From an uncultured Chloroflexia bacterium (lineage in GTDB: Bacteria; Chloroflexota; Limnocylindria; Limnocylindrales; CSP1-4): a stretch of 64,000 bases of DNA. The stretch lies in the NCBI GenBank assembly GCA_963696045.1, contig CAVOIR010000007.1:20665-84664 (forward strand). The letters are read 5' to 3'. Made by a program: the position numbers and the translations under genes. Shown one piece after another: positions 39,887 to 46,023 of the stretch. How positions within the stretch are numbered: the stretch's first letter is position 1; each line of letters begins with the position of its first letter. The notes under the pieces were generated by a model. That model saw only the letters and a list, made by a program, of their open reading frames with translations. It ran no database searches and was not told where the DNA came from.

Positions 39887-41227
39887 GTGGTGCTGCCCCT
39901 CGTGGCCATCCTGGTGCTGGGCATCGTGGCCTTCACCGTGCTCTGGGTGGTCGGCGTCGGACCGCGCATCTACGACCTGGCTGTCGACACCGCGGAGGCC
40001 AACATCGGCATCCTCCGCTTCGTCGCGGCGGCCACGGGCATCCTCCTCTTCACCGTCCCGGCGGCCTTCGTCATCATCTTCATGGAGCTCAAGATCATCG
40101 CCTTCATGAACCTGCGCCTGGGGCCCAACCGCATCGGCCCGTGGGGCACCCTGAGCTCCACGATCCACGGGCTCAAGGTGCTGGCCAAGGAGGACTTCAC
40201 CCCGAGCGGCGTGGACGTGCCGGTCTTCACGCTGGCGCCGGCGGTGGTCTACCTGGCGGCGGTCCTGACGCTGCTCGTCATCCCCTTCGCGCCCGGCATG
40301 GTCGGCTCCGAGATGGAGCTCGGCCTCCTCTACTTCTTCGCCATCGGGGGCCTGAGCGTCATCGGCCTGATGATGGCCGGCTGGTCGAGCTTCAACAAGT
40401 ACTCGCTCCTGGGCGGCCTGCGCGCCGCGGCGGCGATCGTCAGCTACGAGCTGCCGCTCATCCTCGGCGTCATGGGCATCGTGCTGCTGGCCGGTACCCT
40501 CAACCTGGGGACGATCGTGGAGAATCAGTCGGGCTCCATCCTCGACTGGTACGCCTTCCAGCAGCCGCTCGGCCTCATCATCTTCTTCATCGCCGCCACC
40601 GCCGAGGCCTCGCGGACGCCCTTCGACTTCACCGAGGCTGACTCCGAGATCGTGGCCGGCTTCGCCACCGAGTACAGCGGCATGCGCTTCGGCTTCTTCT
40701 TCTTCGCCGAGTACGTCAACGTCTTCATCCTGTCGGCGCTGACCGTGACGCTGTTCCTGGGCGGCTGGAATGGCCTCTTCGACATCGACCCGCTGCTCGA
40801 CGCGGTGGGCATCGCCACGCCGGTCTCCACGGCGCTCGACATCGGCTCGCTGGGCCCCTGGCTGATCGCCATCCCGCTGCTCGTGCCGCCGGTCCTCGTG
40901 CTCGCCCTCGCCGGCCTGCTGTGGATGCTGAGGTCGTCGTGGGGGGTCCTGAAGTCCCTGCTCATCGGGTTCGTCCTGGCCAACCTGCTGGTGGCGGGTG
41001 CGGTGACGATCTGGGCGCTCTTCAGCTTCGAGGCGCTCATGGGGATCGTCTGGTTCCTGCTCAAGTCGTTCGTGCTGGTAGCCCTCTTCGTGCTCATGCG
41101 GGCGACCTTCCCGCGCGTGCGCATGGACCAGCTCATGGGCTTCGCCTGGAAGTGGATGATGCCGGCCGCGCTCGTGAACATCTTCGTCACCGCGGCCGCC
41201 ATCCTCATCGTCATGGAGCTGGCCTGA
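39887..41227 (+). CDS. nuoH: NADH-quinone oxidoreductase subunit H
   Basis: FMELKIIAFMNLRLGPNRIGPWGTLSSTIHGLKVLAKEDF, GWSSFNKYSLLGGLRAAAAIVSYELP, AEASRTPFDFTEADSEIVAGFATEYSGMRFGFFFFAEY. A GTG at 39838 overlaps the nuoD stop (GTGA), so the real start may be there across an indel. Confidence 0.9.
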   Translation: MVLPLVAILVLGIVAFTVLWVVGVGPRIYDLAVDTAEANIGILRFVAAATGILLFTVPAAFVIIFMELKIIAFMNLRLGPNRIGPWGTLSSTIHGLKVLAKEDFTPSGVDVPVFTLAPAVVYLAAVLTLLVIPFAPGMVGSEMELGLLYFFAIGGLSVIGLMMAGWSSFNKYSLLGGLRAAAAIVSYELPLILGVMGIVLLAGTLNLGTIVENQSGSILDWYAFQQPLGLIIFFIAATAEASRTPFDFTEADSEIVAGFATEYSGMRFGFFFFAEYVNVFILSALTVTLFLGGWNGLFDIDPLLDAVGIATPVSTALDIGSLGPWLIAIPLLVPPVLVLALAGLLWMLRSSWGVLKSLLIGFVLANLLVAGAVTIWALFSFEALMGIVWFLLKSFVLVALFVLMRATFPRVRMDQLMGFAWKWMMPAALVNIFVTAAAILIVMELA

Positions 41228-43432: not shown

Positions 43433-46023
43433 ATGACCGACACCCTGCCCCAGACCAGCCAGCCTGCCCTGGACGAGGCCGCCGAGCGACTGCTCAGCAG
43501 CCAGTCGCCGCAGCGCCGCCTGGTCTCGCCGGCCTTCAGCCTCGAGATCGACGGCCGGACGCTGACCGGTCGGGGCGGCCAGACCATCCTGGATGTCTGC
43601 CGGGACAACGGCATCGAGGTACCCACCCTCTGCTACGAGCCCAAGCTGCCCGGCTTCGGCGCCTGTCGCATGTGCGTCGTCGAGGTCGAGGGCGAGGAGT
43701 CTCCGCCCATCTCCTGCTCGCGCCCGGCGGAGGCGGACATGGTCGTGCGGACCCAGACGCCGAGGCTGCGACAGATCCGCAAGACGAACCTCGAGCTCAT
43801 CTTCAGCGACCACAACGCCTACTGCCTGCCGCCCTGCCAGAACAAGTGCCCCAGCCACATCGACATCCCGGGCTTCCTGAAGGCCAACACCGAGGGCGAC
43901 TTCGTCGAGTCGGCGCGGATCTTCAAGCGCACCATCCCGTTCCCCTCGATCCTGGGCCGGGTCTGCCCGGCGCCCTGCGAGGAGCACTGCCGTCGCGACG
44001 AGGTCGAGGAGGCCATCGCCATCCGCGACAGCCACCGCTACGCTGGTGACCAGGTCCTGAAGCTCCAGGCTGCCGGCGCCCAGCCGCCTCGGCCATTCGA
44101 GCTGCAGCCATCCACCGGCCGGCGGGTGGCCGTCATCGGTTCGGGCCCGGCGGGCATGGCGGCCGCCTATTACCTGGCCCTCGACGGTCACGGCGTGACC
44201 GTCTTCGAACGCGACCCGGAGCCCGGCGGCATGCTGCGCTACGGCATCCCCCAGTACCGGCTGCCCAAGGTCGAGGTCCTCGAGGCCGAGTACGAGTCCG
44301 TCTGGGACCTCGGTGTCCGCCTCGTGGCCAACGCCGAGCTCGGGGTGGACTTCACGCTCGACGACCTGCAGAACGAGGGCTACGACGCGGTCCTCGTGGC
44401 CATCGGCTGCTACGACACGAACGAGCTGGGCATCCCGGGAGAGGACGCCACGGGCGTCATCGACGGCCTCGAGTACCTGCGCGTCGCGACACTTGGCCTG
44501 CCCTACCCGGACCATGCGGGCAAGCGGGTGGTCGTCATCGGCGGTGGCTTCACGTCGATGGACTGCGCACGCACCTCGATCCGCCAGGGCTGCTCGCGAG
44601 GTGACGCTCGTCTACCGGCGCGACATGAAGGACATGCCCGCCGCCAACGAGGTCCACGAGATGCTCGAGGAGGGCGCCCGGGCCATCTTCCAGGCCTCGC
44701 CGACGCGCGTCGTGACCGACGCGTCCGGGACGGTGACCGGCGTGGAGTTCCAGCGCATGGCACTCGGCGCCCCGGACGCATCGGGCCGCCGGCGACCGGA
44801 GCCCATGGCCGGCACCGAGTTCATCATCGACTGCGATCGCGTCCTGCTGGCCATCGGCCAGGCGCCCGACCTCACCTGGCTGACGCGCGGTGCGGAGGGT
44901 GTGCGAGCTTCGTCGCGCGGACGCCTCGAGGCCGACGCAGTGACCTTCGGGACCGGGCGGGCGGGCGTCTTCGGCACGGGCGATGTGCGCACCGGGTCCG
45001 CCACCGTCGTGGAGGCCATCGCCGAGGGCCGTCGCGCCTCGTATGCCATCAACGCCTACCTGCAGGGCCAGGACCTCGACGAGATCAGGACCCGCCAGAT
45101 CGCTCGCCGAACCGCAACCCGAGTTCCTGTCGATCGTGCCCTACAGCGGCGAGGTCAAGGAGCCACGCCTCCGGCTGCGCTCCATGGCTCCCGCCGAACG
45201 GAGCAGCTCGTACGTCGAGTACGAGATCCCCTACACGCAGGCCGAGGCGATGCGCGAGTCGGCCCGCTGCCTGCAGTGCACGTGCGAGGCCATCGGCTAC
45301 TGCGACCTGCGCCGCCAGGGCATCGAGTACGGGACGACGCTGCGGACGCTCGAGCCTGGACGGACCGGCCTGTCGGTGCGCAGCGTGGCCGAGAACCGCT
45401 TCACGGGCGCCAACCACGACTACATCCGCGACGACAGCCACGCCTTCATCCTGCGCGAGCCATCCCGCTGCATCGACTGCGGCCGCTGCGCCAACGTCTG
45501 CAAGGAGGTCGTCGGCGCGGCCTGCTACGACTTCATGCGCACGGGCTTCGACACGCTCGTGACGACGCCGCTGGACATGAGCCTGAACACGACGCCCTGC
45601 GTCTCGTGCGGCCGCTGCGCCGAGACGTGCCCGACTGGTGCACTCATGCCCAAGCCGCGAGTCCTCGAGAAGTACGAGGTCGACGAGTCACGCTGCATCC
45701 TCTGCGGCATCTGCGTGGATGCCTGCCCTTACGACGCCCTGCGCTGCGGTCCGGACTTCGAGCTCGCCCACGAGTCGCGCGAGGAGCCCATGATCGATCT
45801 CATGGCCATCTCCGCCATGGAACGCGACACCGAGATCAGCTACGTGCGCCGTGAGCGCGACTGGCTGGCGCGGGCCCAGGCCGACGGGCGTGACGTCCCG
45901 CGCGATCGGTCGCTGCCCGTGCTGCCGGTGAGCCTGGCCGGCAACGGCTCGGCGCAGGGTCGCCATCATGGAGGCGTCGCCGGAGCGACCGGCGGTGGCT
46001 CGACACACGCCCATCACAGGTAG
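43433..46023 (+). CDS. chimeric FeS flavoprotein: NuoG/HydA-type 2Fe-2S domain, GltD-like FAD/NAD(P)H oxidoreductase, NuoG/HydA-type 4Fe-4S domains, and the NuoI C-terminal half; 2 frame shifts (~44588, ~45100); no molybdopterin domain
   Basis: ORF 43433..: EIDGRTLTGRGGQTILDVCRDNGIEVPTLCYEPKLPGFGACRMCVVEVEG; CLPPCQNKCPSHIDIPGFL...FPSILGRVCPAPCEEHC; RRVAVIGSGPAGMAAAYYLALDGHGVTVFERDPEPGGMLRYGIPQYRLPK. Frame of ORF 44313: REVTLVYRRDMKDMPAANEVHE...RVLLAIGQAPD...GVFGTGDVRTGSATVVEAIAEGRRASYAINAYL. Frame of ORF 44983: [95 protein letters not shown]. Confidence 0.8.

Follow-up and report, generated by a model that had tools for sequence, protein, structure and literature searches.

We analysed a 64,000-nucleotide stretch of contig CAVOIR010000007.1 (the window) from an uncultured Chloroflexia bacterium of the Limnocylindria (assembly GCA_963696045.1), in which window open reading frames (ORFs) and synteny delimit a compact nuo operon, of the kind that encodes respiratory complex I, at 36.8–52.0 kb of the + strand (Table 1). 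The subunits A, B, C, D, H, J, K, L, M, and N of the quinone-binding (Q) and proton-pumping (P) modules are all encoded together in tightly packed genes. The ferredoxin-type subunit NuoI, in contrast to the single chain of canonical complex I, is encoded in two halves that belong to two different proteins. Its N-terminal half (I_N) opens a 279-amino-acid (aa) protein that continues into a NuoE-like domain (I_N::E), and its C-terminal half (I_C) lies near the end of a large protein, here called the big subunit, with a NuoF-like flavin mononucleotide (FMN) subunit encoded between the two. The NuoB translation shows LACCAMEMM, GDCTCSGG, and PGCPP, and the NuoD translation shows GPQHPSTHGVLR and GYLHRGVEK, which we take, from the complex I of T. 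thermophilus and E. coli, to be the ligands of cluster N2 and the context of the quinone-site His/Tyr, respectively.

Table 1. Features of the nuo operon and of its upstream surroundings, in window positions; indented names are parts of the gene listed above them.
Feature	Position	Strand	Basis and remarks
nuoA	36812..37231	+	ORF; tblastn match to NuoA of relative L002 (PF00507 gene)
nuoB	37239..37958	+	ORF translation; synteny
nuoC (to ~38620) and nuoD (from ~38621), a single 597-aa ORF in the window	38048..39841	+	ORF, synteny
nuoH	39887..41227	+	stop overlaps the ATG of I_N::E (TGATG)
I_N::E fusion gene, 279 aa	41227..42066	+	Pfam, NCBIfam; NuoI N-half, conserved linker, NuoE/BfuC-like thioredoxin-fold domain
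 NuoI N-half (I_N), aa 1-88	41227..41490	+	amphipathic N-terminus, PKVTVQYPE, RHRG, single motif CETCFQCAAACP at 41398-41433
 conserved linker between I_N and the NuoE-like domain	41491..41604	+	contains GPAEQYAERREESALRRSGRPVPDR
 NuoE/BfuC-like 2Fe-2S thioredoxin-fold domain	41605..42033	+	PF01257 (2Fe-2S_thioredx) aa 127-269; degenerate cluster ligands
NuoF/BfuB-like FMN subunit, ~432 aa	42077..43375	+	PF01512, PF10531, PF10589; GTG start inferred
big subunit, 862 aa once extra bases 44597 and 45100 are removed	43433..46023	+	tblastn, corrected translation
 N-terminal [2Fe-2S] domain (A1/N1b-type)	43535..43759	+	PF13510 Fer2_4 aa 35-109; Cys invariant
 GltD/NfnL-like domain	43811..45115	+	PF14691, PF07992, PRK12814; extra base 44597 inside, 45100 near 3' end
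 three [4Fe-4S] motif regions	45268..45633	+	CLQCTCx5C motif 45268-45303, motif a 45469-45504, motif b 45598-45633
 NuoI C-half (I_C)	45670..45795	+	motif c at 45694-45729; TIGR01971 positions 71-116, E = 2e-15
nuoJ	46041..46623	+	ORF, synteny, DNA alignment; one extra base at ~46391-46397
nuoK	46620..46931	+	ORF, synteny
nuoL	46940..48934	+	ORF, synteny
nuoM	48934..50509	+	ORF, synteny, DNA alignment; one extra base at 49977
nuoN	50506..52029	+	proton-antiporter-like ORF; position agrees with relatives L001/L002
proteostasis cluster	23809-30208	+	
 Lon protease	23809-26370	+	
 DnaJ	26388-27467	+	
 ClpB	27662-30208	+	
IS110-family transposase	30433-31317	-	PF01548, PF02371
NDUFAF7-like methyltransferase	31639-32814	+	PF02636

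The NuoI profiles divide between the two proteins in a complementary manner. ORF 41227-42066 is an uninterrupted reading frame, and the NCBIfam NuoI models match aa 10-85 of the 279-aa protein. TIGR01971 positions 1-66 (of 121) fall on its aa 14-80 and positions 71-116 on the end of the big subunit, NF004537 covers I_N with positions 23-99 and I_C with positions 100-145, directly consecutive and without overlap, and positions 12-84 of the 180 in PRK05888.1-1 match aa 10-82 of the fusion protein. By the same hidden Markov model coordinates, the halves do not overlap at the split, and a short strand duplicated in "RYHVHW" (after I_N) and "KYEVDES" (before motif c), which would hint at how the split arose, is conjectural. 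The N-terminal segment of NuoI (amphipathic start, PxTxxYPE, R-x-RG) is present 5' of the first cluster motif, which corresponds to C58-P69 of the ORF, and a residue-level alignment of I_N with the NuoI structures 8qby_I and 7awt_I was obtained. The NuoI-specific extension after the second motif (P-x-FE-x-A/S…R) is present in I_C and aligns with 8qby_I. When joined in silico, the halves matched TIGR01971 positions 1-116 of 121 with 94.7 bits, aligned end to end with residues 17-144 of 163 of the Paracoccus 8qby_I (E = 5e-23), and also aligned with E. coli NuoI (7awt_I).

An earlier, sequence-only reading of this DNA had placed the two CxxCxxCxxxCP motifs at 41398..41433 and 45694..45729, which the translation confirmed exactly. 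It had also proposed that a NuoI N-half is fused in frame to a NuoE-like domain, and that the missing C-half sits at the end of the gene ending at 46023; the first proposal agrees with the NCBIfam models and PF01257, and the second with the complementary coverage by TIGR01971 and NF004537. The profiles assigned the C-terminal segment to NuoI and not to an ordinary ferredoxin motif of NuoG- or HydA-like proteins. Judged by its single motif and its below-cutoff score, neither half qualifies alone as a member of the NuoI family. A tblastn search with the joined halves detected no intact or further NuoI-like sequence in the 64-kb window, only the two pieces.

The same split recurs across relatives. 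More than 100 full-length homologues of I_N::E share its length of 279 aa at 75-94% identity, and a scan of one genome per GTDB species revealed relatives in at least 303 species representatives, a lower bound, with identity down to about 50%. These records were labelled Chloroflexota, Candidatus Limnocylindrales, or CSP1-4, members of a class that is also called Ellin6529 or Candidatus Edaphomicrobia (the latter in the Antarctic soil paper that names it). We fetched 82 loci, each followed as far as its contig reaches, and all of them had the order A-B-C-D-H-[I_N::E]-F-[big]-J-K-L-M(-N) and none an intact nuoI. The position of the nuoI gene is kept, with I_N directly 3' of nuoH and I_C directly 5' of nuoJ in all loci reaching that far. 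Exactly one four-Cys motif occurs in each of 81 I_N::E proteins (81/81), the motif c region is present and essentially invariant in 57/57 intact big proteins, and all eight cluster Cys of the two halves are invariant in the family alignment. Both halves were found in 67 loci, at a spacing of 4334-4693 nt, and I_C alone in none; I_N stood alone in 16 loci, all of them on contigs that stop less than 4.44 kb downstream. Judged from these sequences, the split is conserved and not an artefact. The arrangement thus has the relatives, and the conserved junctions, on whose absence the sequence-only reading had said it would fall.

The window copy itself is broken in several places. As given, the big gene runs through three frames owing to single-base insertions at 44597 and 45100, so that the large protein ending at 46023, which the sequence-only reading had treated as one ORF, does end in I_C but is not one ORF. 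The intact 889-aa orthologue of L002 covers the window gene over its full length in three tblastn segments, the insertion sites were placed by DNA alignment with relatives, and removal of the two bases gives an 862-aa protein without a stop. Relative to intact relatives, nuoJ and nuoM each contain a single extra base (~46391-46397 and 49977, respectively). Given that the breaks in L001, a long contig, lie elsewhere, and that the genes are intact in metagenome-assembled genomes (MAGs) from short reads, we read the window insertions as errors and not as decay. All four are probably assembly errors, in a pattern that fits error-prone long-read assembly; many genes are also fragmented in assemblies with "MFD" contig_N-style names. 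We rejected a pseudogene reading of the frame breaks, since breaks fall at different sites elsewhere, the corrected gene is free of stops, and no further sign of decay is seen.

These data also bear on whether the whole arrangement could be an assembly artefact or a decaying cluster, in which a mis-join or insertion destroyed nuoI and left the operon non-functional. The four frame-breaking insertions within ~5.4 kb of the window operon and the fragmentation of several related long contigs would fit such an origin. However, the same junctions and order recur in all 82 loci, from many independent assemblies that include short-read MAGs with intact genes, and the fusion protein is encoded by the 303 or more species representatives mentioned above. 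All cluster Cys are invariant, I_C has a mean identity of 89%, the frame breaks differ in position from assembly to assembly while the corrected window gene is stop-free, and the layout is common to a second phylum (see below). We therefore assign this explanation a negligible probability.

The gene order that the sequence-only reading had given stands in all 82 loci, except for its fusion of nuoC and nuoD, which is doubtful. A single nuoCD ORF was found in the window and in L004 only, and the two genes are separate in 15/17 relatives checked, where nuoC ends at or overlapping the nuoD start in a different frame. The window nuoCD ORF could reflect either an indel artefact in the GC-rich tail of nuoC or a fusion specific to a subclade.

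Conservation within the family is uneven. Mean pairwise identity reaches 94% for motifs a and b of the big subunit, 91% for the FeS region of its GltD-like domain (78-91% for the GltD/NfnL-like domain), and 89% for I_C, compared with 72% for I_N, 58% for the NuoF-like protein, and 51% for the NuoE-like domain. The linker that follows I_N, at 72%, is conserved to the level of I_N and well above the NuoE-like domain that it precedes, and it probably contributes a specific contact.

A 2x[4Fe-4S] ferredoxin fold builds each of its clusters on three Cys of one motif plus a fourth Cys donated by the other motif, and a single CxxCxxCxxxCP motif cannot give all four ligands of one cluster. Motifs a and b of the big subunit form a HydA/NfnA-type 2x[4Fe-4S] domain with invariant Cys (FeFe_hydrog_A6 and HoxU profiles; collinear with NfnA/StnC). 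Given that they align with the solved NfnA/StnC/HydA domain, motif c is left without an internal partner, as is I_N in its own chain, and given that each cluster needs Cys from both motifs, I_N and I_C would have to associate in trans. On these grounds we infer that I_N and I_C associate in trans to bind clusters N6a and N6b. The sequence-only reading had likewise held that the halves only work together and tether the module to a core of the 11-subunit type, and profiles, synteny, Cys conservation, co-occurrence, and the second phylum all support this, the assembly itself being deduced from them.

The halves might instead be unpaired, with motif c binding a cluster within the big subunit (together with motif b, for instance, or in the stead of the A5 cluster), I_N persisting as a vestige or structural anchor, and an intact NuoI encoded elsewhere in the genome. 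The dicluster models Fer4_7 and Fer4_9 span motifs b and c, which are only ~21 residues apart, motif c falls, by alignment, where the A5 region begins in StnC/NfnA, and the lack of a second nuoI is known for the window and the fetched loci only. Nevertheless, motif b is already paired with motif a in the solved NfnA/StnC/HydA-type domain, with four Cys each, and motif c could not by itself ligate a whole cluster. The best profile for motif c and its extension is the NuoI C-half, and the four Cys of I_N are invariant in 81/81 proteins, unlike those of a vestige. In addition, the halves co-occur strictly and are both absent from soluble relatives (Nfn/Stn proteins in the PDB; the BfuC of L095). 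Unpaired halves are thus unlikely, and we return to halves that pair in trans.

The proteins to which the halves are fused have their closest relatives outside complex I. The best PDB matches were 9n5u_C (NfnC), 8oh5_A (StnA), and 9bov_C for the NuoE-like domain and 9bov_B, 8oh5_B, and 9n5u_B for the NuoF-like protein. Residues 48-774 of the big protein (L002 numbering) align with 9bov_A 6-698 (E = 6e-166), and the big protein also aligns with 8oh5_C residues 4-700 (E = 6e-151) and with 9n5u_A. All three module proteins matched these structures ahead of every complex I NuoE, NuoF, or NuoG. The structures are those of the Caldicellulosiruptor NfnABC (9bov), the Sporomusa StnABC (8oh5), and an archaeal Nfn-Bfu (9n5u), electron-bifurcating NADPH/NAD/ferredoxin transhydrogenases of the Bfu family (PMC11829005, PMC10482914, PMC12018979). 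The NuoE, NuoF, and NuoG equivalog scores were far under their cutoffs, and the big protein has no molybdopterin-like C-terminal domain. By alignment, the big subunit is a homologue of NfnA/StnC, and the module as a whole appears closest in descent to Stn/NfnABC enzymes and not to canonical NuoEFG. The sequence-only reading was right to see an inserted electron-input module; its description as NuoE/NuoF/NuoG-like gives way to that of a trimmed Stn/NfnABC (Bfu-type) module.

The big subunit contains, in its GltD/NfnL-like domain, the FeS motifs HNAYCLPPCQNKCP and CPAPCEEHC, together with a conserved flavin adenine dinucleotide (FAD) motif GSGPAG and a conserved NADPH-type signature IGGGFTSMDC…VYRRD…MPA. 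Its alignment with NfnA/StnC stops at about residue 700 of ~1175, where the latter continue into an Fdh-like domain of ~470 aa with cluster A5; the big protein has I_C there and ends ~100 aa after motif c. The A2-A4-A5 branch is described as a non-functional dead end in NfnA and as a working route in related formate dehydrogenases (PMC11829005). From the alignment, I_C would replace A5, and the A2-A4-A5-type branch would here point into the NuoI clusters. The remaining tail of the big subunit is variable and Gly/His-rich (…GGSTHAHHR at ~45930-46020 in the window, …GNGHSHGGNGVGGGGTHAHAK at ~14800-14931 in L002), and may bind metal or simply be disordered.

The other two subunits are reduced relative to their Bfu counterparts. 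The NuoF-like protein covers only residues 124-525 of the 584 in 9bov_B and lacks both the N-terminal thioredoxin (Trx)-like domain and the C-terminal 2x[4Fe-4S] (B3/B4) domain of BfuB; in the window protein there were no Pfam matches to Fer4 or 2Fe-2S_thioredx. The B3/B4 domain is the ferredoxin-reducing part of BfuB (PMC11829005). The FMN loop GLRGRGGAG[YF]P..KW is conserved and GEET is invariant, and in the N3/B1 motif CGKT-IPC the second Cys is Thr in 57/69 proteins and is retained in 9. All NuoE-like domains keep CxCxxC; of the other two canonical Cys of cluster C1, the third is present in 54/81 and missing in 27/81, and the fourth is present in 0/81. The set B1-FMN-C1 has been proposed as the minimal bifurcating "flavobicluster" (PMC11829005), and its full Cys ligation is absent from the Limnocylindria family. 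Cluster ligation in the NuoE-like and NuoF-like subunits thus appears non-canonical or partly lost. Since the big subunit is by far the better conserved, the branch through FAD and NADPH seems to be the most constrained route.

The relationship to bifurcating enzymes raises the question of whether the complex is a true Bfu-type bifurcating or confurcating machine, in which the reactions of NADH, NADPH, and ferredoxin are coupled to the reduction of quinone and to proton pumping, rather than a simple NAD(P)H dehydrogenase. The closest solved relatives, NfnABC and StnABC, do bifurcate, membrane-bound Nuo-Bfu enzymes have been predicted by Schut et al. (PMC9304861), and a variant in Thermoleophilia, described below, keeps a full BfuB and a four-Cys BfuC. 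In the window lineage, however, the F-like subunit lacks both extra domains of BfuB, including B3/B4, the ligands of C1, part of the minimal flavobicluster (PMC11829005), are degenerate, and a canonical Cys of B1/N3 is lost in most members. Moreover, the path to quinone would be downhill from a one-electron cluster, with nothing obvious to hold electrons back. Given the degenerate B1 and C1 sites and the missing BfuB domains, we argue that the Limnocylindria module is non-bifurcating, and regard a bifurcating machine as rather unlikely there.

Related systems place the split in a wider family. With the C-terminal piece of the big protein as query, an exhaustive search of 1.84 billion representative proteins led to three further types. 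One is a second lineage embedded in nuo operons, made up of L083, L084, and at least 8 species representatives of Thermoleophilia (Actinomycetota; L086-L093 and L096), which has the order A-B-C-D-H-[253-aa I_N::E]-[638-aa protein]-[816-aa protein ending in I_C]-J-K-L-M-N. Its I_N is a textbook NuoI sequence (KITVQYPEE…RSRG…CRACTLCETNCP), and its joined halves scored 99.8 bits against TIGR01971. The NuoE-like domain retains all four canonical Cys, and the F-like subunit is a full BfuB with the N-terminal Trx-like [2Fe-2S] and C-terminal 2x[4Fe-4S] domains. The Thermoleophilia form may therefore be the less derived state, and the same split in Chloroflexota and Actinomycetota suggests transfer between phyla. 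With its full Bfu core, this form could, from its domain content, work in a ferredoxin-linked bifurcating or confurcating mode.

A different context was found at L085 (5052-13150), where a por cluster has the order porG-porD-porA-[249-aa half-ferredoxin::BfuC]-[660-aa BfuB]-[1049-aa BfuA, motif c, PorB]. The joined halves of L085 matched NuoI best, with 73 bits over positions 33-115; the NuoI N-terminal segment (TIGR01971 positions 1-32) and complex I genes are absent. This arrangement, comparable with the "Por-Bfu" of Schut et al. (PMC9304861), resembles that of the window in that a NuoI-like domain is divided in two, one part opening a BfuC-like protein and the other following motif b in a BfuA-like protein, and differs in the absence of complex I genes, in the PorB thiamine pyrophosphate (TPP) domain after motif c, and in the presence of an ordinary PorD. 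It suggests that the split domain is a reusable connector. Tentatively, and with less than even odds, the split NuoI-type domain may be a modular inter-subunit "plug" that wires a Bfu-type NAD(P)H module to complex I, as in Limnocylindria and Thermoleophilia, or to pyruvate:ferredoxin oxidoreductase, as in L085. A ferredoxin domain shared by two chains and assembled in trans would then take over from a diffusible ferredoxin.

L095 (9010-11381) encodes a soluble Bfu module, with a 154-aa BfuC that has no half-ferredoxin and a 636-aa BfuB, before the contig stops inside the big-subunit gene; there are no nuo genes upstream, and the proteins are 69-75% identical to the Thermoleophilia module. We consider L095 a candidate for the free-standing ancestor type. 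Across the systems examined, no I_N-type half occurs without an I_C-type half or the reverse, and the soluble relatives have neither, as seen in the PDB Nfn/Stn proteins and, for I_N, in the BfuC of L095. The existence of this soluble module with no nuo genes nearby is what would favour seeing the inserted window genes as a soluble Nfn-like enzyme that shares the operon but stays apart from the membrane complex. Against this stand the covalent fusion of the module subunits to the only NuoI sequences of the operon and the NuoI N-terminal segment PKVTVQYPE…RHRG in I_N; a complex without the halves would lack N6a and N6b. The order is also fixed across two phyla, with genes that overlap or are closely spaced. 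A soluble enzyme is accordingly very improbable.

We conclude, with a probability of roughly 0.7, that the operon encodes a functional complex I variant in which NuoI is made in two halves, each fused to a subunit of an input module derived from Stn/NfnABC. The complex would consist of ten Q- and P-module subunits that are independent of NuoI (A, B, C, D, H, and J-N) and of an eleventh, NuoI with N6a and N6b, in two pieces. The halves would pair in trans, rebuild NuoI, and attach the E-like and big subunits to the Q module; N6a and N6b would then form only after the module docks, so that the pairing would both anchor the module and complete the wire. Electrons from NADPH would enter at the FAD of the big subunit, and those from NADH probably at the FMN of the F-like subunit. 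Both routes would meet at a central [4Fe-4S] cluster of the big subunit and continue through its neighbour in the motif a/b domain to N6a and N6b, to N2 in NuoB, and to quinone, and the P module, itself unchanged, would use this reduction to pump protons in the manner of ordinary complex I. The His/Cys-ligated cluster of NfnA, which corresponds to the exit cluster N5 of canonical NuoG, connects to the GltD domain (PMC11829005). Given this connection, the exit and the docking geometry here would have to differ from those of known complex I. The electron path, the substrates, and proton pumping are thus predictions drawn from sequence, among which simple, proton-pumping NAD(P)H:quinone oxidoreduction is the most likely mode for the Limnocylindria form.

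Several observations weigh against this conclusion. Scored by TIGR01971, which has a curated cutoff of 113.05 bits, the halves alone reach 46-57 bits and the join 94.7 bits, all below the cutoff (as are the 99.8 bits of the Thermoleophilia join), and the two CxxCxxCxxxCP motifs that NuoI carries in one polypeptide occur here one per protein. The trans-assembly of the halves is deduced from their motifs, and the absence of a second nuoI applies to the 64-kb window and the fetched loci, not to whole genomes. The window copy has four frame-breaking single-base insertions, which are probably assembly errors. The por-linked L085 has a split NuoI-like domain without complex I, so that the split is not exclusive to Nuo systems. 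Finally, the NADH branch looks weakened in the window lineage (Thr in N3/B1, Cys loss in C1, and E and F parts that are only 51-58% identical), and the real donor may therefore be NADPH only.

In comparison with canonical 14-subunit complex I (E. coli 7awt, Paracoccus 8qby), the window operon combines the same Q- and P-module subunits with NuoI motifs of the N6a/N6b type, an FMN subunit of the NuoF fold, and a subunit of the NuoE fold. To our knowledge, all structurally characterised complex I enzymes have a single-polypeptide NuoI. The canonical operon has the input module between nuoD and nuoH, whereas here the module lies between nuoH and nuoJ and NuoI is split. Unlike canonical NuoG, the big subunit carries a FAD/NADPH domain of the GltD/NfnL type and lacks the molybdopterin-like domain at its C-terminus. 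With StnABC/NfnABC, the module shares a big subunit that is collinear with NfnA 6-698 (A1, NfnL/GltD FAD domain, A3, A2, and A4). It differs in that a NuoI C-half takes the place of the Fdh-like domain (A5), BfuC gains a NuoI N-half, the window BfuB has neither the Trx-like nor the ferredoxin-type domain, and C1 has degenerate ligands; moreover, the genes of the module lie within a nuo operon, and the module is presumably bound to the membrane.

The predicted "Nuo-Bfu" of Geobacter, Deferribacteres, Planctomycetes, and Nitrospirae, encoded in 14-subunit A-N clusters in which BfuABC stands in for NuoEFG (Schut et al., 2022; PMC9304861), resembles the window system in that a Bfu-type module feeds a complex I-like proton pump. 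However, no split or fusion is mentioned for it, its BfuB is defined by a C-terminal ferredoxin domain that is absent from the window protein, and the big subunit here is of the Nfn type with a GltD domain. The 11-subunit complex I, or ferredoxin-dependent NDH-1 (Moparthi and Hägerhäll, 2011; PMC3144371), has the same set A, B, C, D, H, (I), and J-N, which is contiguous here once the module is left aside; compared by gene content, its core differs in having an intact NuoI/NdhI and no fused input module. Nothing about a split or fusion is said in either Moparthi and Hägerhäll (2011; PMC3144371) or Schut et al. (2022; PMC9304861), a heliorhodopsin preprint describes ordinary 11-subunit operons, and the Antarctic soil paper that names Candidatus Edaphomicrobia uses NuoF as a marker only. 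The full-text literature we searched, which largely leaves out subscription journals, described neither a split NuoI nor an operon of this kind, in agreement with the sequence-only reading, which had been unable to match the architecture to a described complex I. What appears to be new, on the evidence of gene and domain content, is a complex I with an alternative, fused input module and a split NuoI, an architecture for which we found no precedent.

The surroundings of the operon include further genes of interest. NDUFAF7 is a complex I assembly factor in mitochondria, and an NDUFAF7-like methyltransferase gene lies a few kb 5' of the nuo operon both in the window and in relative L001 (1-610). 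An IS110-family transposase gene separates it from the ClpB gene of a proteostasis cluster that also encodes Lon protease and DnaJ. Neither tRNA genes nor Rfam matches at the gathering threshold were found across the 64-kb window (1-64000).

The organisms with this arrangement are some Thermoleophilia and an entire class of Chloroflexota that is widespread in soil and fresh water (Ellin6529 / Candidatus Limnocylindria-Edaphomicrobia). Given that the public annotation of the fusion protein is "NuoE" only, surveys that rely on marker genes would either miss nuoI in these organisms or credit them with an ordinary complex I. If the halves do assemble in trans, they would represent a natural split-protein way of attaching an input module to the Q module, with a docking geometry and an exit cluster unlike those of all known complex I structures, and the NADPH-type FAD site would let NADPH feed a proton-pumping chain directly. 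Such complexes would also show, in a concrete case, by what route soluble flavin/FeS modules came to be joined to 11-subunit cores, which has long been asked about the evolution of complex I. On the more tentative "plug" reading, the Limnocylindria form would be the first complex I to include an NADPH-oxidising site of its own, and the Thermoleophilia form, with its complete Bfu core, could pump protons while linking NADH, NADPH, ferredoxin, and quinone through bifurcation or confurcation.

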